Positions 793 to 59,573 of a DNA stretch of 64,000 nt are shown here, piece after piece. The notes under the pieces are model-generated. The model made no database searches. It was not told where the DNA came from and saw only the letters and a list, made by a program, of their open reading frames with translations. Numbering within the stretch: position 1 is the stretch's first letter; each line of letters begins with the position of its first letter. The translations under genes were made by a program, and so were the position numbers. The DNA lies in NCBI GenBank assembly GCA_964603985.1, contig CAZRXG010000015.1:11957-75956 (forward strand), written 5' to 3'. Origin of the DNA: an uncultured Anaerolineae bacterium. Its GTDB lineage: Bacteria; Chloroflexota; Anaerolineae; Aggregatilineales; UBA3940.

Positions 793-835
793 CTTTATCA
801 CCGACCAAGCCTGGGTAGCTCACCGGAGTGACACC

Positions 836-1831: not shown

Positions 1832-1838
1832 ACTCCCC

Positions 1839-27370: not shown

Positions 27371-28327
27371 GACCGGGGGGTCAGCGCGAAAGTGTCTCTT
27401 GACGAACACGACGAGCGCCACGGTCACGAGAAGGGGAACGGCGACCATCACGGTGATGTGGTGGCTCTGGAAGGGCACGTTCTGGAAGGCCGCCGTTTCC
27501 AGGGGTGGGAAGCTCAGCAGCAGCAGAATATCGCCGAAGGTGTAGCGTGGCAGCGTGACCAGCGACGACAGCGTCAGGGCGCCGAAGGTGATCAGCGTGC
27601 CCCACCAGGCCCATAGCTTCAACCGCGCAAGGCCCCAGATAAGCCCCACCAGCACCAGGATCACCACGTCAAGGGCGACGATGCCGTGTAGATTGGACAG
27701 CAGCGTGCCGAACAAGGGGAAAAGGCCGTGCAGCAGGATCATGACGTGCAGCGCCAGAACGTACAGGCACAGCAGCGCGCACAGCACCCGCACGGCCAGT
27801 GGGATCGAGTCAAGCCAGGAGGGGGTAGGGTCTGTGCGCTCAAAGGTGGCCTGTACGTCTTTGCTTTGATAGAAGCGGATCAGCCCCACCGGCACGATGG
27901 GATAGGCGATCAGGGCGAATGGCAGCGACGCCAAAAGCGTGCCCGGCGTGGGGTCCTTGGCCTGAATGAATATCAGGTAAGTCACGATCATCAGCGGGAA
28001 TCCCGCCAATACCCAGAACCACAGCAAAGTCAGCGTCAGCGCCCTGGCCCATCGACGGCCTGCCAGGTGCCCGTATCCCAGGGAGATGCCGGTGATGGCG
28101 ATCAGGTAGTAGCCCACAATCTGGGTGGCGATGTTGGCAAACATGAACGACCCCACGCCAAACCCCTCGTAGTGGAGGCGGCCTCCCTCGGAGAACAGGT
28201 AGAAGCAGTACATCTCGACCGGCCCGATAAACGCGACGGCAATGCCGGTCAGAAGCATGAGCGCGCCGATAGCCTTGAGGATCAGGCCCCGGTCGCGGTG
28301 CTCTGAATTGTCAGTCGTATCGTGCAT
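27368..28327 (-). CDS. hypothetical polytopic membrane protein
   Basis: Start set at MHDTTDNSE (ATG 28327, AGGGGGA upstream). About 9 TM helices. Confidence 0.65.
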   Translation of the reverse strand: MHDTTDNSEHRDRGLILKAIGALMLLTGIAVAFIGPVEMYCFYLFSEGGRLHYEGFGVGSFMFANIATQIVGYYLIAITGISLGYGHLAGRRWARALTLTLLWFWVLAGFPLMIVTYLIFIQAKDPTPGTLLASLPFALIAYPIVPVGLIRFYQSKDVQATFERTDPTPSWLDSIPLAVRVLCALLCLYVLALHVMILLHGLFPLFGTLLSNLHGIVALDVVILVLVGLIWGLARLKLWAWWGTLITFGALTLSSLVTLPRYTFGDILLLLSFPPLETAAFQNVPFQSHHITVMVAVPLLVTVALVVFVKRHFRADPPV

Positions 28328-28521
28328 TTGTCCCCCTGGAGTTTGTGCCCCGGCTCCCCATAAAAGATAACACCGCTGCGGTGTAGTTTTGCGACAGGCG
28401 GCCTGTGAGTCTTTCGTTCCTTCATACAATTCGTGCCGTCCACCCATTTGCGTAATGGGCGAGAATAGGCGAGACTCCGGCCAACAAATCCACACCCTGC
28501 TTGACAAGGAGGTTCAGCATC

Positions 28522-28917
28522 ATGTCCTACACTATCGAGGTGCTCCCTGGCGAGCCGATCATCTTCTCCAAGCTCTCCAAATCTTTCAGCATCGAGCGCG
28601 ATCTACCGGTGGCGATAGACACAATATTCGAACTGTTGGAAGGTATGGACGGGAAGTGTTTCTTCATTGTCGATTCGGGAGGATTCGTTCCCGACCTGCA
28701 GGGCATCGTGACCAGCGCCAGCATGATGGCCAGAGGCGAGGACCCCGTATGGCACCATCCCAACATATGGGAGGTTATCGTGGTTACGTCGGCAAACATT
28801 GTTAAGATGAGCGTTGATGGACTTCGACATGCGGCGTTTGGGCATCTGAAAATCCAGGCCTTCAGCACGCCCGAAGAAGCGCTGGCCTACGCCCGTGGGA
28901 AGATCGCCGGGGAATGA
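28522..28917 (+). CDS. hypothetical protein (131 aa)
   Basis: ATG 28522 with AAGGAGG 9 nt upstream. Lower GC than its surroundings. Family not recognised. Confidence 0.6.
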   Translation: MSYTIEVLPGEPIIFSKLSKSFSIERDLPVAIDTIFELLEGMDGKCFFIVDSGGFVPDLQGIVTSASMMARGEDPVWHHPNIWEVIVVTSANIVKMSVDGLRHAAFGHLKIQAFSTPEEALAYARGKIAGE

Positions 28918-29138
28918 AAGAACTGGTGCTTCGTTAAGTTGGTTTTGCCTCCCTTCTTGGGCACCCTCATCGCCGCTGCGCTCCGATGTGTCGCCCGCGC
29001 ATGGGGGGACGGACGATCCGTTGGGCTTCGCAGGGGGGTGGGGGCTTCCTGGAAATGGAGTGAATGAGCTACCAATGCCCTGCAAAGGGGGAGGCTTTTG
29101 GTGACAATTTGTTCGTGCCTCCCGCCAGAACCCGGCAT

Positions 29139-29167
29139 TTGATACCTGGTCTGCTTGCGATTATAAT
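29139..29167 (+). promoter_or_regulatory. sigma70-type promoter TTGATA-17 nt-TATAAT (a second extended -10, TGaTATAAT, at 29180-29188)
   Basis: TTGATAcctggtctgcttgcgatTATAAT read directly, with gTGATATAAT 15 nt downstream. Confidence 0.6.
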
Positions 29168-29206
29168 CCCGCTACCGGGTGATATAATCCAACGGGCACG
29201 TGACAG

Positions 29207-29230
29207 AGGTGCCGCCAGCGGCACCTTTTT
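29207..29230 (+). terminator. leader terminator/attenuator upstream of the 465-aa gene
   Basis: aGGTGCCGccagCGGCACCt followed by TTTTT. The upstream GGCAC (29195-29199) can pair with the GTGCC arm instead, as an antiterminator. Confidence 0.5.
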
Positions 29231-29294
29231 GCCTTATGCGGGCGAGACCGTCGCCCCAGCCAATAAACTAAGCGAAGTGGGGGAGTCAAACAGT

Positions 29295-30692
29295 ATGCTA
29301 GTCCACGAACAACCAACAACGACCACCAGACACCCGGAGAGGGTATACACATGGCAGCCAAGGGCGTTCAATGTGTGGGTGGGCACGGAGCCTTACAACG
29401 CTTTGCAGGCACGCTTCCTGGCGCAGCTGCGGAAGCGCCTGGAGGCGCAAGGCTGCATCTTTGTCGAGGTGCCGGAGCAGGAGACAAAGCTTGGTCCGGT
29501 GGCCCACCTGGCTATCGCCTTCGGTAGGGACCTTGAGGAAGAGATCAGTCCCGTGACGCTGGTGGGGCGTATGCCCAAGCCGCGTGGCATGATGCTGGTC
29601 GTCAACGCGGTTGGCCGCATCCCGGCCATGCGCCTGTTCGACCTGGCGCGTGGACAGCTTGTCAGGAAGGCGGGCCACATCGGCGTCACGCTGGAGGGCA
29701 GGCTGGACGGTGCGCGCATCGAGCGGGCGCTGTGGGCCAGTATGGCGGGCAACAATCGCCTGCTCGATGGGGCCGAGAGCGCGATCCTGGACAGCCTGGC
29801 GCTGCGCGTGGAGGCGCACGTCAGCGCCCAGAAGATCAACGACCACGCGGGAGACGTTGAGACGCCGATGACGTGGGCCGAGTGGAGCGCGTCGCCCGTC
29901 CACGCGGACATCGCCCGTGCGGCGCGCGCGCTGGGAAAGGCCGGGATCATCGAGGACGAGGTGCCGCTGGGGCAGTATGGCTCAGGCGGCCAGGTGCGCC
30001 ACGTGCTGCGTTTTCTGAAGCGGGCGGCGCTGGGCGAGGGCATGCGCAGCCAGCTTGACCTTGACCTGGGCGTCATGGGGGTGACGACCTCCGGCGGCAA
30101 CAAGATCAGCGTCAGCGATGACGCCGAAGAAGCGCACATCGTGCCGGTCAGCCAGTTGACGCAGACGGGCTACGTGCGGGCCATCCCGGAGGACTGCCCG
30201 GTCAGCTACATCTCGCCGTCGGTGGAAACGCACGAGAACGGCATGGTGTACCTGGCCGACGCGCTGGTCAATGCCGGTCTGGTCGACAGCTTTGACAGCT
30301 TCCTGGGCTACCTGGAAGCTCACTTTGCTCGGCATGAGCGGATCGACATCCTGCCGCAGGGGACGTGGCACAAGGTAACGGCCATCGACCACTTTCACCG
30401 GCAGCCCAGGCTGGACAGCATCAAGGAGTCGGAACGGGTGGAGATCGTCTACCCGGACACGGAGCGCTTCCCGGAGATCGATTTTCCGTGTGGCGTGCGC
30501 GAGGCGGAGCTGCATCTGCTCTCGGCGCTGTTCAAGTCGGAGCTGTTTCTCACGCCGGAGCCGCTGGGTGAGCGTGCGATCGTCGTCGTGCTGCCGGGAC
30601 ACGGGTCGGTGGCGCTGTACGGCGGGCCGCGCGACGAGCTGACCGACCTGCTGGTGAGTGGGATGGAGATGGAGGAGATCGTGCGGATATAG
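29295..30692 (+). CDS. hypothetical protein (465 aa), family not recognised
   Basis: Long ORF with normal amino-acid composition. Start set at MLVHEQP (ATG 29295), downstream of the promoter/leader. The track start at 29064 would lie upstream of the promoter. Confidence 0.65.
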   Translation: MLVHEQPTTTTRHPERVYTWQPRAFNVWVGTEPYNALQARFLAQLRKRLEAQGCIFVEVPEQETKLGPVAHLAIAFGRDLEEEISPVTLVGRMPKPRGMMLVVNAVGRIPAMRLFDLARGQLVRKAGHIGVTLEGRLDGARIERALWASMAGNNRLLDGAESAILDSLALRVEAHVSAQKINDHAGDVETPMTWAEWSASPVHADIARAARALGKAGIIEDEVPLGQYGSGGQVRHVLRFLKRAALGEGMRSQLDLDLGVMGVTTSGGNKISVSDDAEEAHIVPVSQLTQTGYVRAIPEDCPVSYISPSVETHENGMVYLADALVNAGLVDSFDSFLGYLEAHFARHERIDILPQGTWHKVTAIDHFHRQPRLDSIKESERVEIVYPDTERFPEIDFPCGVREAELHLLSALFKSELFLTPEPLGERAIVVVLPGHGSVALYGGPRDELTDLLVSGMEMEEIVRI

Positions 30693-34085: not shown

Positions 34086-34601
34086 ATGTGGTGGTACCGC
34101 CTCAAGCAGGTGTGGTGGGATCTGACGGCCATCGTGCTGCCGGTTGATTACACGGAAGCCGAAGCCGCGCTCTCGCCGGAGCTGCTGGCGCTGTTCAAAC
34201 GGATGAGGAAAGGCGACCAGCGGCACGGTCTGCGGGTGATGGGCAAGCTCACGGCGGCGGGGCACATGCACCCTGACCTGCTGGTCGCCGCCCTGCTGCA
34301 CGACGTGGGTAAGGCGCGCTACCGGTACACGGTCTTTGACCGGACGTTGGTGGTGCTGGCGAAGCGGTTCGCGCCGCGCCGGTACGCGCGCCGGTCGCGG
34401 GGCGAGGCGCGCGGGTTGTGGCGACCGTTGACGATCTCGGCGCAGCACCCGCAGTGGTCGGCGGAGGACATGGCAGCCGCCGGGGCGAGCGAGCTGGCGG
34501 TCGCGCTGGCGCGGCGGCACCAGGATGCGCTTGAGGGGGAGCCAAATTGCGAGGAAGACCGGCTGCTGGCGCTGCTCCAGTCGGTGGATGATGAGAGTTG
34601 A
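34086..34601 (+). CDS. HD domain-containing protein
   Basis: ...DQRHGLRV...ALLHDVGK... matches H...HD metal-dependent phosphohydrolase motifs. Confidence 0.65.
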   Translation: MWWYRLKQVWWDLTAIVLPVDYTEAEAALSPELLALFKRMRKGDQRHGLRVMGKLTAAGHMHPDLLVAALLHDVGKARYRYTVFDRTLVVLAKRFAPRRYARRSRGEARGLWRPLTISAQHPQWSAEDMAAAGASELAVALARRHQDALEGEPNCEEDRLLALLQSVDDES

Positions 34602-34659
34602 GGCTTGGCGAATGTCCAAAGTCCCATTACTGCCCAATGCACTCTAAGAGAGGGATGGG

Positions 34660-36351
34660 GTGATAAGTGTTATGCAGGCATTGAATGATATGATTGAGGC
34701 TCATCCCACTCACAAAATACATAGGGAGTTGAGAAAGCAACAGGTTCTGGAAGCTTTCTCGGACTATATTGATGAGACCACCTTTTACCAATGGCATCTG
34801 AGCCTCTATAAGTTCGCTACGGTCAGGCCATTAGTTTACTATCGTGATTCCACCATTTCTGACGCGCTAGACTTCTTTAGTCAGAGTCCTGATCTGGCCC
34901 TGGAAGCCATTTGTGCCTTTCAGCGAGAGTTAAACCACTCCATCATGTCGTTACTACGCCCAGCCAGAAGCTGGGAGAAGGAAGATAAACTATCCCTGGA
35001 TAACCCAGAGCAAATCTTCGAATTTGAGAGTGTGTGGCACCCTGAGTACCAGAGATACTCTGAGCATGTATTCAATCATCTAATCAATGTGCCTTTGTAT
35101 ATGTTGGGTCGCCTCAACCGAAAACCTAAAGCGAAGAAGCCAAAGGACTTCGTCAGTCAAACCCTCGCCAATAGAGTAGAGACGCTCAAAGACAAGAAGT
35201 TAACTTCTTTGACTGATGGGTTTGAACCGATTGTGAGAAATGCGATCTCTCATGGAGGAGTAGACTTCGGACTTGTTGAGATTACATATATCGACAAGAG
35301 AAAGAATGCCCAAAAGGTCCTCTCTGCTTATGAGTTCTCGCAGCTTTTCGACGACATGGTCGACACGTGTCATTCTATTCTCATAGCAATGCTTTTGTTT
35401 GTCTGCAATCACCGCCCTCTTGTCCAAACCCATGGTCTGCATCGTCTTCCATTGGGCCTACGTTTTTTGTTTATTGACGCGATTGCCTCAACTACTCGCT
35501 TTCAACTCCTTACAATGATAGAGAGCCGCGCAGTTATAGGCAACCGGAGGCAACTGAACATATCATGCAGGATAGATACATGCTCGCGCTTAACACACAC
35601 ATATGAGGCGATTGCTGCCTGCTGGCATTCAGCCAGCTTTGGCGGGGAGGATTATGAACGCTTTGCAGTGAGTATAGACTGTGGGAGACTCGTTACTTCA
35701 TCCCTATTCGTAGATGGGGATGTACTCCATCAAGCGATCTCCAAAAACTGGACAATTGATCAATGCAGAGAAGCAAAATTGGTGGAAACTGATCTTCTGT
35801 GGTTTGATGTGCCGACTTTACAGCGGAAGATGAACTCCTGGCGTAACTTGTTCTTAGCACGGTGGGAGTTGTGTAAGCGACAAGTGATCCAGCAATGGCG
35901 TCAAGGCGGTTTTAAGATGCTGGGCTCGCGTTATTCAATCCGACATATCATCGACAAGAGCGCCGAAAAAATCCGTCGAATTGAGGCCTATGTTGTACTG
36001 CATGAAACCGGAACTATCACTGATGCAGAGATTCATAGCATCATCAGGCACATTGTCAAGCGATTACGAAAACATAGGATTAAAGGAAAAAGATTAGACA
36101 GAGAGATTGGGTTTTCTAGGAAGCCAAACTATATCTGGATACGGTTGTATGCTGCCGATAGAAGGCTCAGACGATTTTCAGGCTGGCATGATGGTAATTT
36201 AATCCTAATGGCTGAGTGGTTTTCGCGTTGGAAAAATAATGGCCCAATATTTGTCAAGAGTCCACATCAGGAAATTAGTGAGATCCGTATTCGGTATAAT
36301 CCGGAATTGACCATAGACGAGGATGGAAATCCCGCATTTACTGTTGCCTGA
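34660..36351 (+). CDS. hypothetical 563-aa protein in a low-GC island, with an RNxxxH (HEPN-like) motif
   Basis: Clean ORF with no antisense shadow ORFs. Hand-counted 60-nt lines give 38-55% GC, against about 75% just upstream. Contains EPIVRNAISHGGV. No family recognised. Confidence 0.7.
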   Translation: MISVMQALNDMIEAHPTHKIHRELRKQQVLEAFSDYIDETTFYQWHLSLYKFATVRPLVYYRDSTISDALDFFSQSPDLALEAICAFQRELNHSIMSLLRPARSWEKEDKLSLDNPEQIFEFESVWHPEYQRYSEHVFNHLINVPLYMLGRLNRKPKAKKPKDFVSQTLANRVETLKDKKLTSLTDGFEPIVRNAISHGGVDFGLVEITYIDKRKNAQKVLSAYEFSQLFDDMVDTCHSILIAMLLFVCNHRPLVQTHGLHRLPLGLRFLFIDAIASTTRFQLLTMIESRAVIGNRRQLNISCRIDTCSRLTHTYEAIAACWHSASFGGEDYERFAVSIDCGRLVTSSLFVDGDVLHQAISKNWTIDQCREAKLVETDLLWFDVPTLQRKMNSWRNLFLARWELCKRQVIQQWRQGGFKMLGSRYSIRHIIDKSAEKIRRIEAYVVLHETGTITDAEIHSIIRHIVKRLRKHRIKGKRLDREIGFSRKPNYIWIRLYAADRRLRRFSGWHDGNLILMAEWFSRWKNNGPIFVKSPHQEISEIRIRYNPELTIDEDGNPAFTVA

Positions 36352-36404
36352 AGTAACTGATAGTGAGTCTTCTGACGTGAGCCTGAGATTTGAGATCGGA
36401 CAAC

Positions 36405-36608
36405 ATGAATTGGCGAGAGTACATTCATTCGGACCCGGATATTCTGGTTGGAAAGCCCGTCGTAAAGGGCACCCGGATAGGCGTGGCCTTTATCCTCGAC
36501 CTGCTTGCCGCAGGGTGGACGGAGAAGCAAATATTGGAAAACTACCCGTCGTTGACGCGCGACTCCCTGAAGGCTGTTTTTGCGTTTGCCGCTGAGAAAC
36601 GGTCGTAG
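36405..36608 (+). CDS. DUF433 domain-containing protein (antitoxin-like HTH)
   Basis: MNWREYIHSDPDILVGKPVVKGTRIGVAFILDLLAAGWTEKQILENYPSLTRDSLKAVFAFAAE matches the DUF433 consensus (dP.i..GkPvi.GTRi.V..il..l..G.s.eeIl..YP.Lt.e.i.aal.yA). Confidence 0.8.
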   Translation: MNWREYIHSDPDILVGKPVVKGTRIGVAFILDLLAAGWTEKQILENYPSLTRDSLKAVFAFAAEKRS

Positions 36609-36612
36609 CATC

Positions 36613-37296
36613 ATGACCCCATTTATCGACCTCAGTCACGTCTTTGAAGACAACATGCCCGGCTTCAAGCTGAAGAACGAGGACGGGACGGTCACACAGT
36701 ACACGGCCCGCATCCGGCCCTTCATGACGCACGCCGAATCGGCCCCCAAGTACGAGGGCCGGTGCTCATTTGAGGTGACGGAGATCACGTTCCAGACTTC
36801 GGTGGGCACCTACCTCGACTCGCCTTACCACCGCTACCCGGATGGGCGTGACATTGGACAGATCCGGCTGGAGGAGGTGATCCTGCCGGGTGTGGTCGTC
36901 GATGCGCGGGGGCGGGGGCCGTTCGAGGCGTTGAGCGGGGAGGCCCTGCCCGCCGACGCCGACCTGGAAGGCCGGGCGGTGCTGTTCAACTTTGGGTGGG
37001 ACAGGCATTGGGGGAGGGAGCAGTACCACGCCTACCCGTTCGTCTCACAGGCGGTCATCGAGCGGCTGATCGCGGCGCGGGTGAAGCTGGTCGGCGTCGA
37101 TACGGTGAACGTTGATGACTCGCGTGACCTGACCCGCCCGGCCCACACGTTGTTTCTGCGGGACGAGATCCTGATCGTCGAGAACCTGGCCCACCTCGAC
37201 CGGCTGCACGGCCAGCGCTTCCGGTTCTTCGCCGTGCCGATCAAGGGACGGGGCGTCGCGGCGATGCCGGTGCGGGCGTTTGCGGAAGTGCTGTGA
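36613..37296 (+). CDS. cyclase family protein (arylformamidase / kynurenine formamidase-like)
   Basis: MTPFIDLSH.F...MP.... and ...GTYLDSPYH...VGVDT.NVD.. motifs. Confidence 0.75.
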   Translation: MTPFIDLSHVFEDNMPGFKLKNEDGTVTQYTARIRPFMTHAESAPKYEGRCSFEVTEITFQTSVGTYLDSPYHRYPDGRDIGQIRLEEVILPGVVVDARGRGPFEALSGEALPADADLEGRAVLFNFGWDRHWGREQYHAYPFVSQAVIERLIAARVKLVGVDTVNVDDSRDLTRPAHTLFLRDEILIVENLAHLDRLHGQRFRFFAVPIKGRGVAAMPVRAFAEVL

Positions 37297-37368
37297 GCGG
37301 TTGGAACCCTGGCGGGCATTTGCACGTTATGATCACGGACACTCGATCACATGACAGCAGAGGAACAC

Positions 37369-38961
37369 ATGGCACAAGCAGCACAACAACCCGCTCCTGA
37401 AAGAGGACGCGCGCGCCGCCGGGCGAAAAGGCGGCGTTCTCGCCGCTGGCCCTTCAACCGGTACACGCCGCGCGCGGTACTGATCGGGGTGGGCTTGGGG
37501 TTGGTGACCTTCGTCCTGCTGGGCGTTATGATGGTCGTCGGGGCCTACGGGTACTTCCAGGTGTTCGGGCTGATCGTGCCGGGCGTGCACGTCGGGGGCG
37601 TGAAGCTGGGCGGGATGTCGGTCGAGGAGGCGTCGCTGGCGCTGGATGAGGCGTGGAACGTCGAGCAGGGGGGGATCATCCTGACCGACGGCCAGCGCTC
37701 GTGGTACGCGCCGCCCTCGGACTTCGGGCTGGCGCTCGATCCGGTGGCGACGGCGCGGCGTGCCTCCGACGTGGGGCACGGTGGAAGCGTGATCGGCGAG
37801 ATGGTGATGATGATCGACAGCACGCTGAACGGGACGCCGGTCGAGCCGGTGGTGCAGGTGGATGCCGAGGCAGCCAGAGCGGGGTTAGAAGATTGGGCGG
37901 AGAAGATTGACCTGCTGCCGCAGGATGCCTCGATCCGCATCGAGGGCGGTGAGGTGGTCGCGGTGCCGGGTGTGCCGGGTTACACGCTGGACGTGGAGGG
38001 CACGCTGGCGGCGCTGGTCGCCGCCCCCGGCCTGGCGCTGATAGACGGTTACCTGCCGCTGGTGCTGGTGCCGGTCGCGCCGCGCGTCGCCGATGCGGGG
38101 GATGCCGCCGCCGATGCCGAGCGGCTGCTGGCCTCTGACTTGAGCGTTGAGGGCTATGACCCGATCACGGACGAGCACTTACAGTGGACGGCCTCGCGGG
38201 AGGAGATCGCGTCGTGGTTGGCGGTCGTGGAGGGCGAGGATGGGCCGGAGGTGGTCGTGGGCGAGGAGCGGTTGGCGGCCTACCTGGATGAGTTGAGCGC
38301 CTCGTTGGGGGAGGGGCGGTACTTCGATGCGCAGGAGAGTGCGGGGTTGCTTGAGGCGGCGCTGCGCGAGGAGTCGGCGGCGGCGCTGATCGTCCGCCAC
38401 ACGCCGACGACGTACACCGTTGGGGCGGGTGATACGCTGACCAGCATCTCGTGGGACGTTGGCATGCCTTACTGGCGCATCCTGGACGCCAACCCTGGCC
38501 TCGACTCCGAAACGCTCACGGTGGGGCAGGTGCTGACCATTCCCTCGAAGGACGACCTGCTGCCGCTGCCGGTGGTGATCAACAAGCGGATGGTGGTCAG
38601 CATCAACCGGCAGCGGTTGTGGACTTACCAGGATGGCGAGCTGCTGCATGAGTACGTGATCAGCACGGGCATCGACCGCTCGCCGACCCAGCCGGGGATT
38701 TTCCAGGTGCAGACGCACGAGCCGCTGGCTTACGCCTCGGTGTGGGACCTGACGATGCCGCACTTTTTGGGGATTTACGAGTCGTGGCCGGGCTTCATGA
38801 ATGGCTTTCACGGGCTGCCGTCGCGGGGCGGCGGGCAGGTGCTGTGGGCCGCCTCGCTGGGGCGCAAAACGTCGTTCGGGTGCATCATCCTTGACCTGGA
38901 CGATGCTGAGGCGCTTTACAATTGGGCTGACGAGGGCGTGGTGGTGGAGATCGCGGAGTAA
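37369..38961 (+). CDS. L,D-transpeptidase (YkuD domain) with LysM domain, membrane-anchored
   Basis: LysM: YTVGAGDTLTSISWDVGMPYWRILDANP...VGQVLTIP. YkuD: ...GFHGLPS...SFGCIIL. One N-terminal TM helix. Start at ATG 37369 after GAGGAA. Confidence 0.85.
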   Translation: MAQAAQQPAPERGRARRRAKRRRSRRWPFNRYTPRAVLIGVGLGLVTFVLLGVMMVVGAYGYFQVFGLIVPGVHVGGVKLGGMSVEEASLALDEAWNVEQGGIILTDGQRSWYAPPSDFGLALDPVATARRASDVGHGGSVIGEMVMMIDSTLNGTPVEPVVQVDAEAARAGLEDWAEKIDLLPQDASIRIEGGEVVAVPGVPGYTLDVEGTLAALVAAPGLALIDGYLPLVLVPVAPRVADAGDAAADAERLLASDLSVEGYDPITDEHLQWTASREEIASWLAVVEGEDGPEVVVGEERLAAYLDELSASLGEGRYFDAQESAGLLEAALREESAAALIVRHTPTTYTVGAGDTLTSISWDVGMPYWRILDANPGLDSETLTVGQVLTIPSKDDLLPLPVVINKRMVVSINRQRLWTYQDGELLHEYVISTGIDRSPTQPGIFQVQTHEPLAYASVWDLTMPHFLGIYESWPGFMNGFHGLPSRGGGQVLWAASLGRKTSFGCIILDLDDAEALYNWADEGVVVEIAE

Positions 38962-39106
38962 GGCGCCCGGCGCTTCGCCGCGAGCCGGTGGAGGCGGGGA
39001 GATTCAATCCGCAGATGGCGCAGATGGCGCGGACATATAGCTACTAGCGGTGGGGCCTGCGAGATTCGCAGGCTCTCGGTTTGAGATATGCCGCCAGAGG
39101 CCCGGT

Positions 39107-39135
39107 TTGACTCTCGCCCGTGCCTTACATAAGAT
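39107..39135 (+). promoter_or_regulatory. candidate promoter TTGACT-17 nt-TAAGAT
   Basis: TTGACTctcgcccgtgccttacaTAAGAT, 39 nt upstream of ATG 39174. Confidence 0.45.
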
Positions 39136-39173
39136 AGGGCCGCGTACCGCGCGATCAACCGGAGGGGGACACA

Positions 39174-41357
39174 ATGGCCCGGCAATCCTATACGCCCGAA
39201 TACCAACACTCCTGGGCGCTCGTGATCGGCATCGACAGCTACCAGGACACCAGCCTCCCGCCACTGGAAACGGCGGTCAAGGGCGCGCGGGAGGTGGCCC
39301 AACTGCTGCAAGATGACCTGGGCTTCGACGCCGGGCGCATCATCCGGCTGGAGAATGAGCAGGCCACCCAGCGCGCCATCCGCCGGGCGTTCGCCGATCC
39401 GCTGGGGCGGGCCGACCGGGTTGGCCGCGATGACCGGGTGCTGATCTACTTCGCCGGGCACGGCTTGACCTACGACACCGCAGAGGGCCTGATCGGCTGC
39501 GTCGCGCCCTACGACATCGAGACGGCCTATTGGGACACTGCCATCCCGATGGATGAGCTGACGCGGCTGGCGAACCGCAGCCATGCCAAGCATGTGCTGT
39601 TCCTGCTGGATGCGTGCTTCTCAGGCTTCGCGACGGTGCGCGAGGTCGACAGCGGGGCACAGCGCCAGGTGGCCGACTACCTGACCCGGCCCGTGCGGCA
39701 GGTGATCGCCGCCGGGACGCGTGAACAGGCGGTCAGCGACCTGTGGGGGCCGGGGCGGCACTCGCTGTTCACGGGGTTCCTGCTGGAAGGGCTGAGCGGA
39801 GCCGCGCCCGCGCCGGGGGGCATCCTGCGGGCGTTCCACCTGGCGGGGTATTTGCAGGACGTGGTGGCACAGCACTCGCGCTCGCGGCAAACGCCGCAGT
39901 ACGCGGCGCTGATGGGCAGCAGCGGCGGCGACTTTGTATTTGGCGTGCGTGACGTGGTGCAGCTTCCCCAGTGGCTGACGGCCTTCGCCGAGAGCGCCGA
40001 CCCCAGCCAGCGCGTGATGGCCGTCCGTGAGCTTTTGAAGACGGCCCAGGGCGACGATCCGTGCCTCGCCGATGTGGCACTGGATCACCTGGAGCGGTTG
40101 TGTGGCGACGAGGACGCCATTGTCCGCTCGTCTGCGGCGGCGGCGCTGGGGCAGGTCGCGCCCGCGCCTGAGCCGCCCGCCCCGGAGGACGTGCGCGATG
40201 AGCCGGTGCAGGTCGCGCCCGCGCCTGAGCCGTCCACCCCAACACGCCCGGTGCCGGGTGCGAAACGCGCACGTCAGGGCTTAAAGCCGCTGTGGATCGT
40301 CGGCGGGCTGGCAGGCGCGGCGGTGCTGGTGGTTGTGCTGCTGGCGCTGTCGGGGGTGATCGGGAAACCGGCAGCCGAGGAGGAGCCGGTAGAGGAAGAG
40401 GAACCGGCGGTTGTGGAGAGTATCCCGGTTCCCGACGTGGTGGGCATGGACATCGCTTCTGCCAGAGCGGCCCTGGAAGACGCCCGGTTTGTGGTTGAGG
40501 TGCTCGAAGAGGAAGGTGAGTTGATCATCGGCCAGGCGCCCGCCGTCGAAGAGCAGGCCGACATCGTCGACGATCAGGACCCTGACGCCGGTACGCTTCT
40601 GGGTACAGGAGAACGGGTGATTATCGTGCTGAAGATGCCCCCAACTTATGTCACACCCACTCCCTCATACGAGAAGCCCCCCCTCACGGTGGGAGATTAT
40701 TTTGTCTACAGAATGAGCTGGGACGAATCGGAGAAGACCTACAGCGTCGTGGGCGGGGACCAGGTAAACGGGCGTCCTGTCTGGGTTGTGGAGGCCACCT
40801 GGGATACGGACGGCTACCAGTCGTACCTGGAGACGGTCTGGGTAGATCAGGAAACAGGCGTGCACCTCCAGCTCGAGTTGAACGAGGTTTACGCCTCTCC
40901 TAAAACCTGGCTCATCGACGAGGAACAGGTTCAGGTTACGGAGAGAAGATACAGCTCCAGCTATGAGCTTGAGGAGGGCATCCAGGAAAAGGTATCGATT
41001 GTAATTGACACCTCGAATGAGGAACACGAATCATTCGGTCAGATCGTAGGAGGCCCCAGCATCTTCAAAATCACCCGCGATCTGAAAATAGACGAATGGT
41101 ACCCCTGGAAATTTGAGGGTCAATGGCCCTCGCAGGTGGTCGGGGAGGACGTTATCGCCGTACCGGCGGGCACCTTCGACTGCTGGGCTGTCAAGACCGT
41201 TCAATCGGAGGACGGGCAGCACTACATTCGCTACTTCGATAAAGAGACGGGCATGCTGGTCAGGTACGAAAACTGGGTCAAGCGTGACGACGAGTGGGAG
41301 ATCGTCGAGGGGGAAGTGCTGATCTCGTTCCTGTACAGCGCAGCCGGGAACAGGTGA
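39174..41357 (+). CDS. caspase-like (peptidase C14) protein with HEAT-like repeats, TM helix, PASTA-like segment and an unknown C-terminal domain
   Basis: WALVIGIDSY..., catalytic His in VLIYFAGHG, catalytic Cys in VLFLLDACFSG. HEAT-like VRELL...DEDAIVRSSAAAALGQ. TM LWIVGGLAGAAVLVVVLLAL. PASTA-like VPDVVGMDIASARAALEDARFVV. Confidence 0.85.
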   Translation: MARQSYTPEYQHSWALVIGIDSYQDTSLPPLETAVKGAREVAQLLQDDLGFDAGRIIRLENEQATQRAIRRAFADPLGRADRVGRDDRVLIYFAGHGLTYDTAEGLIGCVAPYDIETAYWDTAIPMDELTRLANRSHAKHVLFLLDACFSGFATVREVDSGAQRQVADYLTRPVRQVIAAGTREQAVSDLWGPGRHSLFTGFLLEGLSGAAPAPGGILRAFHLAGYLQDVVAQHSRSRQTPQYAALMGSSGGDFVFGVRDVVQLPQWLTAFAESADPSQRVMAVRELLKTAQGDDPCLADVALDHLERLCGDEDAIVRSSAAAALGQVAPAPEPPAPEDVRDEPVQVAPAPEPSTPTRPVPGAKRARQGLKPLWIVGGLAGAAVLVVVLLALSGVIGKPAAEEEPVEEEEPAVVESIPVPDVVGMDIASARAALEDARFVVEVLEEEGELIIGQAPAVEEQADIVDDQDPDAGTLLGTGERVIIVLKMPPTYVTPTPSYEKPPLTVGDYFVYRMSWDESEKTYSVVGGDQVNGRPVWVVEATWDTDGYQSYLETVWVDQETGVHLQLELNEVYASPKTWLIDEEQVQVTERRYSSSYELEEGIQEKVSIVIDTSNEEHESFGQIVGGPSIFKITRDLKIDEWYPWKFEGQWPSQVVGEDVIAVPAGTFDCWAVKTVQSEDGQHYIRYFDKETGMLVRYENWVKRDDEWEIVEGEVLISFLYSAAGNR

Positions 41358-49479: not shown

Positions 49480-49572
49480 GCGCCACTCTCTGCCTGCCGC
49501 CGCTTTCCCAGCACATGAGAATGACTATAATGGGAGAAGTTTAGTCGTTTTCATAGTGAGGGATGATGCAAG

Positions 49573-50127
49573 ATGGCGCAAGATAGAGAGAGGGTTTTTG
49601 TCGAGCGGGAGAGCGAGAAGGGTAAGAGGCTGAACTGGCATGCGGCCTGGCTGCGACTTGATCAGATGACGGGTGTCATCGCGCTGCAATCGATGGGGGT
49701 GGCGAAGAAGTGGGCGGTGACGTTTCAGGTTGCTCAGCTTGAGGCGTTTGAGATCCTGCGCGTCAGTGACGTGCGCACGCTGACGGCGATGTACGGTGGC
49801 GGGCTGGCGGGCTGGGCGATGGCCGCGATCATGTCGCGGTGGGCCAAAGTGCCCGTCATTAAGCTGTCCCAGCAGTCCGCCGAGGCAGGCGGGCGGTGGG
49901 CACACATCCGCATGCCGGGGATGCGGCCCAAGAAGACACGCGATCTGGCTAACCGGATCGCGGACCTTCTGCGCCAGCACGGTTACAGCGGCATGATGCC
50001 GAACCTGGCCGACGAGGAACTGTGGAAAGCACCCACCGGCCCGATCCTGATCGGGTGCGGGCTGCTCATCGTCATCGTGGTGTGCCTGGTCGCTGTGATA
50101 ACCGTGATCGGTACCTCCGGTTCGTGA
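49573..50127 (+). CDS. hypothetical protein with C-terminal TM anchor (184 aa)
   Basis: ORF in the track. C-terminal helix ILIGCGLLIVIVVCLVAVITVI. Family not recognised. Confidence 0.55.
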   Translation: MAQDRERVFVERESEKGKRLNWHAAWLRLDQMTGVIALQSMGVAKKWAVTFQVAQLEAFEILRVSDVRTLTAMYGGGLAGWAMAAIMSRWAKVPVIKLSQQSAEAGGRWAHIRMPGMRPKKTRDLANRIADLLRQHGYSGMMPNLADEELWKAPTGPILIGCGLLIVIVVCLVAVITVIGTSGS

Positions 50128-50229
50128 GAGGGGGCCGAATCGCGAAGGGGCGAAGGCCGCAGGAATGCACAAGGGCCTGAGTTCTAAGTCGATCCCAGGC
50201 CCTTGGGTGGTAAAGATCTCCTCTGGCAT

Positions 50230-50682
50230 TCAGGGGTTCCTGTAAGCATCCTCTACAACAGTCTCTTTCCAGCGGTAGCATCTGTCCCATTCGACTTGCA
50301 GGTGATATGTCACATTGCCGCCTGGAGATTCATCTTTGATATAAAGCTCGTAGTCACCAAACGGTGAGGCATTTCCTATACACACCGGCCAGTCATACTC
50401 CCTGCACCCTGCTGCAATATAAAAGGCCACGACATCCGCATATGTATCTGTGGTCTCATACTCATATACGTATGTAGCGTATTCATATCCATCAATATCA
50501 ATATGCTCTTTCGTGAGAACACTACCTGGATAGACAGGGGCCTCAGGAATAATGGTATCGCGCTCGCGGCAGTTGGTAATTGGCTTGCCATCTACTAGTG
50601 CCACAGCAGTACATAGACACACAGTAATGACCACCAGTGCCACCGCAGCGATTCTCGCAAGGTGCTCTTTGAAACTCATCAT
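50230..50682 (-). CDS. hypothetical secreted/anchored protein in a low-GC patch
   Basis: MMSFKEHLARIAAVALVVITVCLCTAV signal/anchor. Tyr/Glu/Asp-rich domain. AT-richer than the flanks. Confidence 0.6.
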   Translation of the reverse strand: MMSFKEHLARIAAVALVVITVCLCTAVALVDGKPITNCRERDTIIPEAPVYPGSVLTKEHIDIDGYEYATYVYEYETTDTYADVVAFYIAAGCREYDWPVCIGNASPFGDYELYIKDESPGGNVTYHLQVEWDRCYRWKETVVEDAYRNP

Positions 50683-50904
50683 ATCTCGCTCAAGTAAGCG
50701 ACATGCCAACATAGCCCGCGCCACAGTCTACATCAGAATCCCCAACCTGAACACCCACCACCCGGCGATGAAGGTCGCGCTGCGGCACCGCGATTGCCCA
50801 TCTGTTCAACCTCCACTAGAATACACCAGAGTCGGGTACGTCGGACGCCCGCAGGCAGCGCGCGGCATTGCTGTGTGACGGGTACGCAGTACGCGAGGAT
50901 CGCC

Positions 50905-51663
50905 ATGCCAGAACTGCAACCCTACAAAGGCTTGTTCGCCGAGTGGCTTGCATCGATGGACACAGCGCAGGCGGAGCAGGTCAGGCAGCCCTCCGGGATC
51001 ACCGACCTGGCGCATTTGGCGCCGGGCGGGTATGCGCGGCGTTTGATCATCGGGGCCGTCGTCGCCTGGTGGCTGCTCGGCGTCGGGCTGTTCGTCGCCG
51101 TCTGGCTCCTCGGCGGTCTCTCGCTCGTGATGCGCAAGGGCGGGATACTGGGGGTGGTGGGCATGTCTTATGTGCCGTGCCTGTGCTTCCTGCTCCTGGT
51201 CGCGGGCACGGTTGCCGTCGCGTTCGGCGGGCCGCGGCTCCAGGCCGCCATCGTCGGTCGACGTCTCGGTTCGCCGGTGATGTGGGCCTCGGCGGAAGAA
51301 CTGCTGCGCGGCGACACGCTCGACCTGACCTTCAGCCAGGACATCAACAGGCCAACCGACATCCAGAGTGTGGTCTTTCAGTTGTTGCTGCGCGAGACGG
51401 TCACTTATACCAGCGGCACCGACCGGGTCACCGTCACCCACGACCACGTCATCGGGCGGGTGGAGCGCCCCGGACGCCCCATGCAGAAGGGCTACCGGCT
51501 GGAGGAGCGCGCCGACTTCCGGATTCCCCCTGACGCGATGCACACCTTCGTCGCCAGCAACAACAAGCTCCAGTGGTTCGTCACCGTGCAGGTCAAGATC
51601 GCCCGCTGGCCGGACTTCCGCAAGGTCTACCAGGTGACCGTCCTGCCGGAGATCACACCGTAA
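50905..51663 (+). CDS. membrane-anchored protein with C-terminal arrestin/Spo0M-like beta-sandwich domain (paralog 1)
   Basis: MPELQPYKG..., 3 TM helices, then LRGDTLDLTF.QDIN.PTDI.SV..QLLLRET.TYTSGTD.VTVTHDHV... FRIPPDAMHTF.... The fold assignment is by eye only. Confidence 0.65.
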   Translation: MPELQPYKGLFAEWLASMDTAQAEQVRQPSGITDLAHLAPGGYARRLIIGAVVAWWLLGVGLFVAVWLLGGLSLVMRKGGILGVVGMSYVPCLCFLLLVAGTVAVAFGGPRLQAAIVGRRLGSPVMWASAEELLRGDTLDLTFSQDINRPTDIQSVVFQLLLRETVTYTSGTDRVTVTHDHVIGRVERPGRPMQKGYRLEERADFRIPPDAMHTFVASNNKLQWFVTVQVKIARWPDFRKVYQVTVLPEITP

Positions 51664-56516: not shown

Positions 56517-57920
56517 GTGGGCGCGCCACGCGGCAACCCCAACCACAGGCGGGGCGCATTGATGGGCACCGGTGAGGTGCTCGCGCCGCCCCGGAGAGCA
56601 TGTCAACGACCGCATGGTCACGAGCCGGACGGCCAGCCGCCCACCGCGACGCACAGCACGCCGGGGGTACGAGACACCGTGCCCCCGGCGGCGCTGGCAA
56701 GTGAAAGGAGTGACACAATCGACAGGTTACGTTATCGCGTCTCAGATCTGCGGGCCGACCAGCGCGCCATCGCCCGGTGCGACGTGCGCTTCAAGGTCGT
56801 GGCTTGTGGACGGCGCTGGGGCAAGACGACGCTCGGCCTGGTGATGGCCGTAAACTCCGCGCGGCGCGGTCGGCGGGTGTGGTGGGTCGCGCCGACCTAC
56901 GGGCTGGCCTTCCACCCCTGGAGGGCGCTCAAGTCGGTGCTGTTCCGCGAGTGGGCGCTCAAGCTCGAAGCGGAGCGCTACATCGAGCTGAAGAACGGGG
57001 GCAACATCACCGTCAAGTCCGCCGAGGACCCGGACAGCCTGCGCGGGGTGGGGCTGGACGCGCTCGTGATCGACGAGGCGGCCTTCGTGGCCGAGGAGGC
57101 GTGGACGGCCTGCCTGCGCCCGGCGCTCGCGGATCGCAGGGGGCGGGCGTTGATGATCTCGACGCCGAAGGGACGCAACTGGTTCTACCACGCCTTTGAG
57201 CGCGGGCGTGACCCGCTGGTCGAGGATTGGCGGGCGTGGCGCTATCCGAGCGCGGCCAACCCGCTGATCGGGGATCGCGAGATCGCCGATGCGCACGCGC
57301 TGATGCCCGATCGCATCTTCAAGCAGGAGTTCGAAGCCGAGTTCATGGCCGACGGCGGTGAGGTGTTCCGCAACCTTGAGGCGGCGGCCATCGCCCCCAT
57401 CGACGCGCAGCCCACCCTCGGCCACCGCTACGTGATGGGCGTTGACTTCGCGCGTTACGAGGACTTCACCGCGCTGGTCGTGATCGACGCCGACGAGGGG
57501 GCGATGGTGGCACTGGACCGCTTCAGCGAGGTCAACTGGGGAGTGCAGCGGGCGCGCATCGCGGCGCTGGCGCGGCGGTGGGACGTGTCGATGATCCTGG
57601 CCGAGGCCAACGCGATGGGCGAGCCGAACATCGAGGCGCTGCGCGACCAGGACCTGCCGATCCAGGGCTTCACCACGACGGCGCGCAGCAAGCCGCCGCT
57701 GATTGAGGGGCTGGTGGTGGCGATTGAGAACGAGGATCTCAGACTGCTGCCCGACCCGGTGCTGTTGGGCGAGTTGGAGAGCTTCGCTTACAGCAACACG
57801 CCCTTTGGGACGCAGTACGGCGCGCCGCCGGGCCGCCACGACGACACGGTGATCGCGCTGGCGCTGGCGTGGCGGCTGGCCTCGGTGCCCAGGTTGACGC
57901 TGGCGATTGCGGTGGTGTGA
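56517..57920 (+). CDS. phage terminase large subunit (orphan); true start uncertain, probably near 56680-56720
   Basis: Walker A VACGRRWGKTT, Walker B ALVIDEAAF, STPKGRNWF. C-terminal RNaseH-like nuclease with VMGVDFA and HDDTVIALALA. The first roughly 60 codons are Arg/Pro-rich and unlikely to be coding. Confidence 0.8.
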   Translation: MGAPRGNPNHRRGALMGTGEVLAPPRRACQRPHGHEPDGQPPTATHSTPGVRDTVPPAALASERSDTIDRLRYRVSDLRADQRAIARCDVRFKVVACGRRWGKTTLGLVMAVNSARRGRRVWWVAPTYGLAFHPWRALKSVLFREWALKLEAERYIELKNGGNITVKSAEDPDSLRGVGLDALVIDEAAFVAEEAWTACLRPALADRRGRALMISTPKGRNWFYHAFERGRDPLVEDWRAWRYPSAANPLIGDREIADAHALMPDRIFKQEFEAEFMADGGEVFRNLEAAAIAPIDAQPTLGHRYVMGVDFARYEDFTALVVIDADEGAMVALDRFSEVNWGVQRARIAALARRWDVSMILAEANAMGEPNIEALRDQDLPIQGFTTTARSKPPLIEGLVVAIENEDLRLLPDPVLLGELESFAYSNTPFGTQYGAPPGRHDDTVIALALAWRLASVPRLTLAIAVV

Positions 57921-58017
57921 GGGGGGTATGTTGCACAGGCACCCTGGCGAGAGTATAGTTGTGAACAAGCTCTGTCCCTTTGCGAATTCAGACAGGCGTT
58001 GGCTTCGCGGGTGCTTG

Positions 58018-58779
58018 ATGGCCGATCTAGCCAGAATCAAATATCGCCACTCCCCCATCATAGAGGTTGTGTGTGAGTTCCGCTTTGTCTCAGACGCACG
58101 GTGGGATGCGGCCGTTCCTGACCGGATCTACGACCGGATCAAGGGCGTATTTCCGGGGAAGAGGAAGGCCCAGGTGGTCGAAAGCATAACCGGGGTGGCA
58201 CATGAGGCTGGCGTTGAGCAGAAAGTAACCATAATTGAGCGCCAACAGTTCCTGCGGGAAGATGAAACTGCATTCGTTCAGGTCAGCCCCAACTTTCTGG
58301 CAATCAACCATCTCAAACCGTATCCTACCTGGGAGAAGTACTTACCGTTAATAAGGCATGCGTTCGAGGCTTACGTTGGCGCGGCGCAACCGCAGGGGCT
58401 GCACCGCATTGGGCTGCGGTACATTAACCGGATCGAGTTTGAGGCCAAGAAGACGTACCTGGAAGAACACTTCAAGTTCCGACCGCAGCACCCATCCATG
58501 TCCGAGGTCAGGTTTGAAGCATTCCTGGTTGGGCTGGACGTGGTATATGAAGAGGAGCGCGACCGGTTGAGAATGCAATTGGCCAGCTCACCGCCTGAAT
58601 CACCGGGTAAGCTCGTGGCGATCTTTGACCTCGACTATTCGCTCGTCCAGGCTGAGGCGGTATCGCTGGACGAGGCAATCGGCTGGGTGGATAAAACAGC
58701 TCACTCGCGCATACAGCAGGCTTTTGAGGACTGTCTTACTCAGGATCTGAAGAACAGGTTTGAACCGGAACAGGAGTGA
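58018..58779 (+). CDS. TIGR04255-like uncharacterised protein
   Basis: MADLARIKYRHSPIIEVVCEFRF... matches my recollection of the TIGR04255 N-terminus (Y.n.Pl.EV..E.RF). Lower GC. The family call is unverified. Confidence 0.6.
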   Translation: MADLARIKYRHSPIIEVVCEFRFVSDARWDAAVPDRIYDRIKGVFPGKRKAQVVESITGVAHEAGVEQKVTIIERQQFLREDETAFVQVSPNFLAINHLKPYPTWEKYLPLIRHAFEAYVGAAQPQGLHRIGLRYINRIEFEAKKTYLEEHFKFRPQHPSMSEVRFEAFLVGLDVVYEEERDRLRMQLASSPPESPGKLVAIFDLDYSLVQAEAVSLDEAIGWVDKTAHSRIQQAFEDCLTQDLKNRFEPEQE

Positions 58780-58785
58780 GTCATC

Positions 58786-59199
58786 TTGCAGGCTTTTACT
58801 CCCTCAAGGTGGTACATACCATCGCCCACCACGAGCCATACTAAGCCGGAACTTGCAATCGATCCAACCGACCGGGCCTGGCCAAGTATTGAGGGCTTCT
58901 ACACCGTCCAGGATGAGGACACCATATTTGCTTTTCTAAGAAAACATCCGGAGATCAATGTTCTGCTTATAGAGGCACGCCGACCGCTCAGCAAACTCTT
59001 TGGCCCCAACCCGCAAGTAGAACTCCGGGTAGTCTCTGACCCGGAGGCAGAGGGGTTCGAAGAGCTGTTCGGCTATATCAGGACATCTCTACCGGTTGAG
59101 GAAGCCCTTGCACAACTCGATGCGTTCGATGAAGCTTGGTTGCTAAATGCCCTCGACAGAGCCAATGGGAAGCTCAACTTTAACCTTATTTTCCAATGA
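58786..59199 (+). CDS. hypothetical protein (137 aa) translationally coupled to the HEPN gene
   Basis: TTG start 7 nt after the upstream stop. Its stop overlaps the next ATG as ATGA. No nucleotidyltransferase (GS..G / DxD) motif seen. Confidence 0.5.
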   Translation: MQAFTPSRWYIPSPTTSHTKPELAIDPTDRAWPSIEGFYTVQDEDTIFAFLRKHPEINVLLIEARRPLSKLFGPNPQVELRVVSDPEAEGFEELFGYIRTSLPVEEALAQLDAFDEAWLLNALDRANGKLNFNLIFQ

Positions 59200-59573
59200 G
59201 TTTTGACTGGTCGGACTATCTCTCGCTGGCCGAATCTCTGTCTCAACACCCCGAAGCCCCCGGTCCCGAAGAAGCCGCCCTTCGTGCGGCCATCAGCCGG
59301 GCATATTATGCAGCCCACTGTACGGCCCGTAATTTCGCACGCAGCCGGGGGATCACCCTGACTAGAACGGGGCGCGATCATCAACTGGTTATCGACTATT
59401 TCAAGGAATCAAAGGACAAGGGAAGAAAAAGCATCGGTCTCTGGTTAGACCGTCTGCGCGATGATCGAAATAAAGCTGACTACGACGACACGCTGACCGG
59501 CGATCCCAGGTTACAGGCCCAATCCTCGGTAGCTCAAGCCAGGAGTGTCCTCACGAAGCTCAATACCCTTTGA
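59196..59573 (+). CDS. HEPN domain protein (UPF0332-like)
   Basis: ...AISRAYYAAHCTARNFARSRGI......DHQLVIDYF............WLDRLRDDRNKADYDD matches the HEPN/UPF0332 pattern sRaYYa.fhaa.alL...gi....H..v...F...l...R...DY. Confidence 0.65.
   Translation: MSFDWSDYLSLAESLSQHPEAPGPEEAALRAAISRAYYAAHCTARNFARSRGITLTRTGRDHQLVIDYFKESKDKGRKSIGLWLDRLRDDRNKADYDDTLTGDPRLQAQSSVAQARSVLTKLNTL

Follow-up and report, generated by a model that had tools for sequence, protein, structure and literature searches.

A solitary AT-rich gene with a candidate HEPN-like motif beside a truncated DUF433 antitoxin gene in an uncultured Anaerolineae bacterium

The DNA analysed here, a window of 64,000 nucleotides (nt) from contig CAZRXG010000015.1 (assembly GCA_964603985.1) of an uncultured Anaerolineae bacterium, contains a low-GC island at positions 34602-36612 which holds one long open reading frame (ORF), encoding a member of an unannotated family of proteins of about 550 amino acids (aa), and a DUF433 gene. 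The island is bordered on the left by a host gene with an HD domain (34086..34601; Pfam HD, E = 2.3e-5; GC at third codon positions, GC3, 0.872) and on the right by a host cyclase/kynurenine-formamidase-like gene (36613..37296; Pfam Cyclase, E = 2.7e-26; GC3 0.868), and these genes as well as the features described between them are located on the + strand. The cyclase gene, for which orthologs were found at 96% and 79% identity, starts at ATG 36613, which corrects an earlier note on this DNA. When the composition was followed in 300-nt windows the GC content fell from 0.69-0.73 (34200-34650) to 0.41-0.49 (34650-36450) and had returned to at least 0.66 by ~36750. The ORF at 34660-36351 has a GC content of 0.451 and a GC3 of 0.482, compared with a GC3 of 0.80-0.90 in seven neighbouring host genes, and across the 64 kb the remaining stretches of 1692 nt average a GC content of 0.655 (sd 0.030, minimum 0.543), from which the ORF deviates by z = -6.8. 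Off frame, the reading stays open for at most 85 aa in the island, compared with 260-415 aa in host genes, so that both the sharp drop in composition and the loss of antisense shadow ORFs described in the earlier note are borne out.

The left junction and the 5' leader of the foreign gene (34602..34659) resemble neither the 21-nt spacer between the HD and cyclase genes of an empty site, described below, nor the leaders of homologous genes. No tRNA was found at the island, the search for flanking repeats gave nothing meaningful beyond chance and no integrase domain was present in the eight genes scanned around it, in agreement with the earlier note, which had seen neither integrase nor repeat. 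Promoter and terminator signals at the island were in no excess over chance and no known RNA family of Rfam was found there. An RNA antitoxin, as in AbiF or ToxIN, was considered as well and is unlikely, the intergenic spaces being just 58 and 38 nt and free of repeats.

The foreign AT-rich gene (34660..36351) was delimited from its ORF, its homologs, its composition and an AlphaFold2 model. The longest ORF, 563 aa, begins at GTG 34660 and is the one called in Logan; a 563-aa ORF is also called in L027, an assembly made independently from this organism, which is 99.99% identical over 11.4 kb. The NCBI call of 468 aa (P0001) is too short, given that the homologs conserve residues 1-95 as well. 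The true start is likely ATG 34672, giving a product of 559 aa, because the "MQ" starts of the homologs align with this codon and a Shine-Dalgarno sequence, GGGGTGAT, is situated 9 nt upstream of it. Neither the full protein nor its isolated domain gave a significant match to the models of Pfam, NCBIfam, PADLOC or PHROGs; the sole match in PADLOC-DB v2.0.0, to JetA (E = 0.035), is noise, and sequence searches of the PDB with the single protein, with two profiles (A1 and A2) and with a Clostridium homolog likewise gave noise only. The earlier note likewise recognised no family for the protein, but the word orphan used there does not hold, since 77 close and more than 500 distant relatives exist.

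That the ORF is nonfunctional, being either a gene in decay or inserted AT-rich DNA that codes for nothing and has a frame open by chance, is scarcely credible. Homologs in two loci are broken, one in a Chloroflexia metagenome-assembled genome (MAG; L015, 5983-7630) into three ORFs and one in a nanopore assembly (L021, 5992-7601) into two, these being either pseudogenes or sequencing frameshifts, and NCBI annotated just the 468-aa version of the gene in the window. The frameshift in the nanopore assembly is however possibly a sequencing error, and against a remnant the frame stays open over 563 codons despite the AT-rich DNA, full-length colinear homologs with conserved motifs are found down to 18% identity, the structure prediction is very confident and the gene is identical in the independent assembly.

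The second gene of the island is a DUF433 (COG2442) antitoxin gene, truncated at its 3' end (36390..36608; PF04255, E = 1.5e-22, 79.6 bits against a cut-off of 23.6; GC 0.539, GC3 0.685). It starts 38 nt (TTG 36390) or 53 nt (ATG 36405) past the stop of the large ORF, ATG 36405 being the probable start, and had been recognised as DUF433 in the earlier note. No copy or remnant of a DUF5615 toxin gene was found anywhere in the 64-kb window; the earlier note had likewise seen no such toxin. Using the cyclase as a synteny anchor, two related loci were found which tell the history of the site. In the first (L026, cyclase 79% identical) an M50 peptidase gene and the HD gene (68% identical) are followed by a 21-nt spacer and the cyclase gene, and this is the empty site. 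The second (L025, cyclase 96% identical) starts within a DUF433 gene with 95.4% nucleotide identity to the copy in the window, followed by an intact gene for a 120-aa DUF5615 protein (PF18480), which it overlaps by one base, and then by cyclase, YkuD and caspase-PASTA genes, whose order is that of the window.

Alignment with blastn showed that positions 1-130 of this second locus correspond to 36467-36596 of the window and positions 542-4180 to 36601-40240. The 4 nt in between (36597..36600, AAAC) form a deletion scar replacing 411 nt (131-541 of L025), as seen from blastn, the junction sequences and an alignment (A3). The missing 411 nt comprise the last codons of DUF433, which in the window is short of ~16 codons, and the whole DUF5615 toxin gene, so the toxin is missing because of this deletion. 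The DUF433 gene is therefore the orphaned, truncated remnant of a DUF433-DUF5615 pair and there is no functional pair in the window. The toxin-antitoxin (TA) DNA has a GC content of 0.54-0.58 and a GC3 of 0.55-0.69, unlike both the host and the large gene, which suggests that it and the large gene are of separate origins. One chromosomal hot spot is in this way seen in three states: empty, with a TA pair, and with a TA remnant next to a lone foreign gene. The end of the L025 contig falls inside DUF433, right where the 563-aa gene would be, and may reflect strain heterogeneity at the hot spot. A metagenome scan with the HD protein for further empty sites returned one uninformative contig of 1.4 kb.

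These data bear directly on the proposal of the earlier note that the two genes form a new two-gene module, in which the product of the DUF433 gene would be the cognate antitoxin of the 563-aa protein, itself a toxin or an effector of abortive infection. The two genes are adjacent, on the same strand and separated by a short gap, both are compositionally atypical and the window holds no DUF5615 toxin. Yet the DUF433 gene is 95% identical at the DNA level to a copy which, in a near-identical genome, precedes a canonical DUF5615 gene, the 411-nt deletion accounts for the absent toxin and also cut off the C-terminus of the DUF433 protein, and the difference in GC3 (0.48 for the large gene, 0.69 for DUF433) suggests separate origins. 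In addition, a phmmer search of 19 homolog loci (246 kb) found neither DUF433 nor DUF5615 in any of them, the loci of the two closest homologs (L028 and L029) included, and blastp among the neighbours of six loci revealed no recurrent neighbour gene. The partnership of DUF433 with the 563-aa protein is thus largely refuted and a module of this kind is very improbable; the locus instead shows that an orphan antitoxin beside an unknown gene can pass for a new two-gene system.

The 77 close relatives of the large protein are 29-55% identical to it and nearly all full length, and an exhaustive profile search gave 512 cluster representatives at E <= 1e-3, 184 of them at E <= 1e-30. Of the 150 best hits listed, those matching at full length measure ~520-600 aa, apart from one of 805 aa (P0109), which carries an extra C-terminal extension of ~265 residues without significant match to any family. 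None of the relatives found has a Pfam domain or an informative name. Members are scattered over at least six phyla, being found in Chloroflexota, Desulfobacterota, Gemmatimonadota, Acidobacteriota, Ignavibacteriota and Bacteroidota, and species-representative genomes harbouring them include Syntrophaceae, Anaerolineae, Herpetosiphon, Chloroflexia, Longimicrobium, Bryobacterales, Melioribacteraceae, Rikenellaceae and Polaribacter; a full-length relative with 21% identity, adjoining a ParA-like gene, is located on the Clostridium argentinense plasmid pRSJ17_1. Among shorter relatives, P0211 and P0212 lack WHPEY but keep IRNAISHGGV together with the following strands and helix, and in P0209 (261 aa, on a 930-nt contig) the WHPNY-RNAISHG region of the family is joined to DUF4910 and HTH_47, either by natural fusion or through chimeric assembly.

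A GC content below that of the flanking DNA was found for the homologous gene in 17 of the 19 loci (mean difference -0.09; p = 7e-4 in a sign test). The transferred unit appears to be essentially the ORF alone, because the upstream leaders of the homologs do not align with each other and no neighbour recurs. Horizontal acquisition of the large gene, proposed in the earlier note, is supported by the empty site, the foreign composition and the patchy phyletic spread. Searches for the family in phages gave no match in PHROGs and none by tblastn in 50,697 phage records, and in IMG/VR one of 2.9 million contigs matched, a Herpetosiphon prophage-like element; the family is not a core phage gene.

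Defence or mobile hallmarks were present in the fetched flanks of 11 of the 19 loci. Of the two closest homologs, one (L028) is accompanied by an NB-ARC/TPR STAND protein and the other (L029) by an integrase and a SMODS-like gene, with an Eco57I methylase and a XhoI endonuclease directly upstream. Type IIG restriction-modification (RM) enzymes are found in L009 and L010, MNT/HepT together with a ribbon-helix-helix (RHH) gene in L001, a prophage with methyltransferases and a capsid gene in L003, an integrase and Rep_trans in L017, and in L006 the PADLOC candidate PDC-S31 directly downstream together with Rad52, SSB and RadC. In Herpetosiphon giganteus DSM 589 (L005, 1775-6099; also the IMG/VR contig, L022) Prok-E2_D/Prok-JAB/ThiF (E2/JAB/E1) genes, DUF3102 and a Replic_Relax relaxase are located upstream of the homolog and a tail tape-measure gene downstream, making the element prophage-like or similar to an integrative and conjugative element.

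Two loci (L007, 3998-9623, and L008, 1421-7046) share a block of a helix-turn-helix (HTH) gene, a GajA-like AAA_15/OLD-TOPRIM gene, a UvrD-like (GajB-like) helicase gene, a gene for a 285-aa protein with a weak hit to TIR effectors, and the homolog. Their right flanks differ, with a LexA-like gene and an AlwI RM system in L007 and the gene of glutaminyl-tRNA synthetase (GlnRS) directly in L008, and the whole looks like a variable defence island beside aminoacyl-tRNA synthetase genes. On the Clostridium plasmid (L024) a second hypothetical protein of 554 aa and a TnpB-family RNA-guided endonuclease are encoded, at 1932-3596 and 401-1642, near the distant homolog; this hypothetical protein was unrelated to the family when compared by hhalign. 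Outside these loci, in a Longimicrobium MAG (L014, 2954-5083), a Ro60/TROVE and vWA protein is encoded ~0.9 kb upstream of the homolog, and a 554-aa ORF without Pfam hit overlaps the 3' end of the homolog on the opposite strand. The only tightly coupled neighbour in any locus is a DUF5677 gene situated directly upstream of the homolog with a gap of 4 nt (L013, 5116-5991), the product of which had no match in PADLOC.

To describe the architecture of the protein, an AlphaFold2 model was built with an alignment of 35 sequences. This full-length model reached a predicted local distance difference test score (pLDDT) of 93.4 and a predicted template modelling score (pTM) of 0.92, and a second confident model a pLDDT of 91.5. 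The model begins with a helical region (residues 1-110), continues with a central domain that is also helical (~116-260) and ends in two alpha/beta domains (~280-380 and ~420-550) linked by a long helix (386-415). The putative HEPN-like core within the central domain (residues ~116-250; 35005..35409), outlined from DSSP on the models and from the indels in alignment A1, starts with a long helix (116-141) containing WHPEY and E135, followed by an indel-rich segment (153-168) and a helix (190-198) that ends with R193-N-x3-H198, after which come a three-stranded beta-meander (200-221) and a long helix (223-250). From the secondary structure of the model the C-terminal half (residues ~280-563; 35497..36351) comprises two alpha/beta domains of beta-beta-alpha-beta-beta type, and this half is proposed to be a sensor or regulatory part.

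All residues that are invariant throughout the family are located in this core. The residues invariant among the 35 members of the close subfamily include W126-H-P-E-Y130, E135, R193, N194, H198, G199 and Y210. When 61 more divergent members were added (62 sequences, 18-28% identity, the plasmid protein included) exactly five columns were invariant, E135, R193, N194, H198 and G199, and W126, H127, H136, N139 and H140 are conserved in the closer subfamily only. E135 (35062-35064) is part of the block WHPEYQRYSEHVFNH (35035..35079), and the other four residues belong to the sequence RNAISHG (35236..35256), the candidate catalytic motif. At the motif level the alignments support a central role of RNxxxH in the function of the family.

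HEPN domains have been defined as four-helix up-down bundles with a variable insert between helices 2 and 3, with an Rx4-6H motif in which R is followed by a polar N, D or H, and with a second conserved acidic residue upstream in helix 2, typically in the form Ex3[KR] (PMC3710099). In the present family the motif with its polar residue, R193-N194-A-I-S-H198, is found in the 35 close as well as the 62 divergent members, and a candidate for the upstream acidic residue is E135, invariant in helix 116-141, in the context E-x3-N rather than E-x3-[KR]. The layout agrees at the level of secondary structure only: the motif ends a helix (190-198) and is followed by a non-helical stretch and a long helix (223-250), and the segment 153-168 is the most indel-rich part of the domain. 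The HEPN-like motif reported in the earlier note is in this sense upheld, being invariant in 62 sequences and placed as in the definition. The comparison of an AlphaFold model by Foldseek, which the note had proposed, gave neither a HEPN nor any other significant match. The motif and the secondary-structure layout fit a HEPN domain, and a HEPN fold of the protein is putative.

The interpretation put forward here, tentatively and at somewhat less than an even chance, is that the large protein is a stand-alone, self-mobile, HEPN-like conflict effector and that the island consists of two unrelated pieces. That the gene moves alone, is rich in AT and often has RM or defence genes as neighbours would match a conflict gene. 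Several observations weigh against this interpretation. A four-helix bundle like that of solved HEPN structures was not recovered: when the full model and the isolated domain were each compared with the PDB in Foldseek, nothing reached E <= 1e-3, the best match of the isolated domain having E = 0.86 and Csx1 (4eog) appearing at rank 14 with a probability of 0.03, although Foldseek is weak on small helical domains and such a null result lowers but does not exclude HEPN membership. Neither did the full model give any significant viral structure in BFVD, and partial, non-significant matches were obtained to 4lg3 (DUF487) and to small proteins from phages or of unknown function, which are uninformative on the role of the protein and probably concern its C-terminal alpha/beta domains. 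The acidic residue E135 is outside the typical Ex3[KR] form, no Pfam HEPN model was significant and hhalign of the domain profile against one HepT sequence (the HepT-like protein of L001) produced no alignment. Permissive pooled Pfam scans of 89 members gave ~31 sub-threshold hits, three of which are to HEPN families, one member each (HEPN_LA2681 0.069, HEPN_RiboL-PSP 0.045 and Hypoth_Ymh 0.23, all far below curated cut-offs). With 30-60 HEPN families assumed in Pfam the chance probability of this is about 1e-5 to 7e-5, but the three hits are probably driven by the motif and so provide no independent evidence. The genomic contexts are suggestive only, 11 of 19 loci being a count without a background rate, and the remaining eight have, like the window, housekeeping or unknown neighbours only. 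The mobile or defence surroundings that the earlier note foresaw for homologs are moderately supported, and the linkage to DUF433 foreseen with them is not. Finally, a lone toxic ribonuclease (RNase) without antitoxin needs auto-inhibition, which is assumed.

The main rival, which has a substantial if rather smaller than even probability, is that the 563-aa protein has a new, non-HEPN fold and serves as a mobile accessory protein, in which the E/R/N/H/G cluster binds a ligand or a phosphate or catalyses another reaction, with a role in element maintenance, regulation, anti-defence or something unrelated to conflict. A new fold would agree with the lack of structural neighbours in the PDB and BFVD although the models are of high confidence, with the lack of a significant match to any HEPN profile, with the beta-meander inserted straight after the motif, which is unusual for HEPN, and with the eight loci in which recognisable defence or mobile neighbours are missing. 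On the other hand, the invariant residues coincide with the catalytic ones published for HEPN, down to the acidic residue upstream and the polar one that follows R. The motif closes a helix, a loop and a long helix come next, and a variable insert precedes it. HEPN families occur more often than expected among the weak hits, and the frequent RM and defence neighbours resemble the contexts of known HEPN families. A more specific form of the HEPN-like interpretation, rather unlikely as a whole, is that the family is an unrecognised single-protein immune or conflict effector with a structurally divergent HEPN-type core, which has a beta-meander behind the catalytic motif and no detectable neighbour in the PDB, joined to two alpha/beta sensor domains of a novel kind, and that it crosses phyla as a bare gene with no recombinase of its own.

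In this interpretation two unrelated pieces of foreign DNA have inserted at one place, where the HD gene meets the cyclase gene. One is a single AT-rich gene (34660/34672-36351) which travels alone and encodes a cytoplasmic protein of ~550 aa, and the other is the truncated DUF433 antitoxin gene, its toxin lost by the 411-nt deletion, which adjoins the large gene by accident and not as a partner. The protein may be a metal-independent HEPN-like RNase with an E/R-N/H site that is normally auto-inhibited, so that no antitoxin gene would be needed, and by analogy the two C-terminal alpha/beta domains could sense a trigger or control oligomerisation and thereby release the RNase. It might then act as an abortive-infection or conflict-type effector, by analogy with ApeA and DARNA/PD-T7-3. 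If this holds, the protein represents a new architecture among single-protein RNase immune effectors such as ApeA and DARNA, in a family found mostly in poorly studied phyla (Chloroflexota, Acidobacteriota and Gemmatimonadota), and a new mechanism of trigger recognition could be found because the sensor domains have no known relatives. If the fold is instead new and non-HEPN, it would be an independent invention of the E/R-N/H active site. Many such candidate families exist and the practical value is modest until an activity is demonstrated.

Elsewhere in the window milder GC dips are seen at 58001-59500, 49501-51000 and 28001-29500 (0.54-0.57 in 1-kb windows compared with a mean of 0.65), the first of which covers several short ORFs on the same strand (57907-59573), and these dips could be other foreign insertions. 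Among the host genes, the one at 39174-41357 encodes a protein of unusual architecture, with a caspase domain (Peptidase_C14), HEAT repeats, a probable membrane segment, PASTA and a DUF3108/LolA-like C-terminus, and it adjoins a YkuD/LysM L,D-transpeptidase gene, an arrangement conserved in L025.

When compared with known systems, the remnant in the island belongs with the type II TA pairs of COG2442 (DUF433) and PIN (DUF5615), which are VapBC-like. COG2442/DUF433 is a predicted DNA-binding antitoxin with PIN genes as its sole conserved neighbours, and chloroflexi and cyanobacteria are especially rich in such pairs (PMC2701414). The gene in the window is a genuine DUF433 member and the pair in L025 overlaps as in canonical pairs, while the window differs in having neither the toxin gene nor the last ~16 codons of the antitoxin. 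For the large protein, the Abi-type and RM-associated HEPN families (AbiD/AbiF/AbiJ, Ymh PF09509, LA2681 and RiboL-PSP) share R-N-x3-H with an upstream acidic residue and are the sole recurrent theme among the weak Pfam hits. The gene contexts are also alike, as the genes of these families are often embedded by restriction-modification systems and on mobile elements (PMC3710099). The large protein differs from them in its own conserved architecture of ~550 aa, matched by no model.

A further likeness is to ApeA, in which ligand-activated oligomers cleave the anticodon loops of tRNA (bioRxiv 10.64898/2026.01.26.701840). Both are single proteins of several hundred residues with an Rx4H-type domain and non-catalytic parts, and neither has an antitoxin gene. 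Trigger sensing and abortive infection are the features of ApeA used as a working model, any such activity of the large protein being putative. No sequence relationship between the two was detected, with no match in PADLOC, which should cover ApeA, no Pfam HEPN match and no solved structure retrieved, and the domain order differs, the large protein having its motif domain in the middle, helices on the N-terminal side and two alpha/beta domains on the C-terminal side. DARNA/PD-T7-3 combines a HEPN domain with one for sensing and keeps its active site occluded before it is activated (bioRxiv 10.64898/2026.02.22.705581), and the large protein, if the proposal is correct, would resemble it as a single-protein HEPN effector with sensor domains and a site that is blocked before activation.

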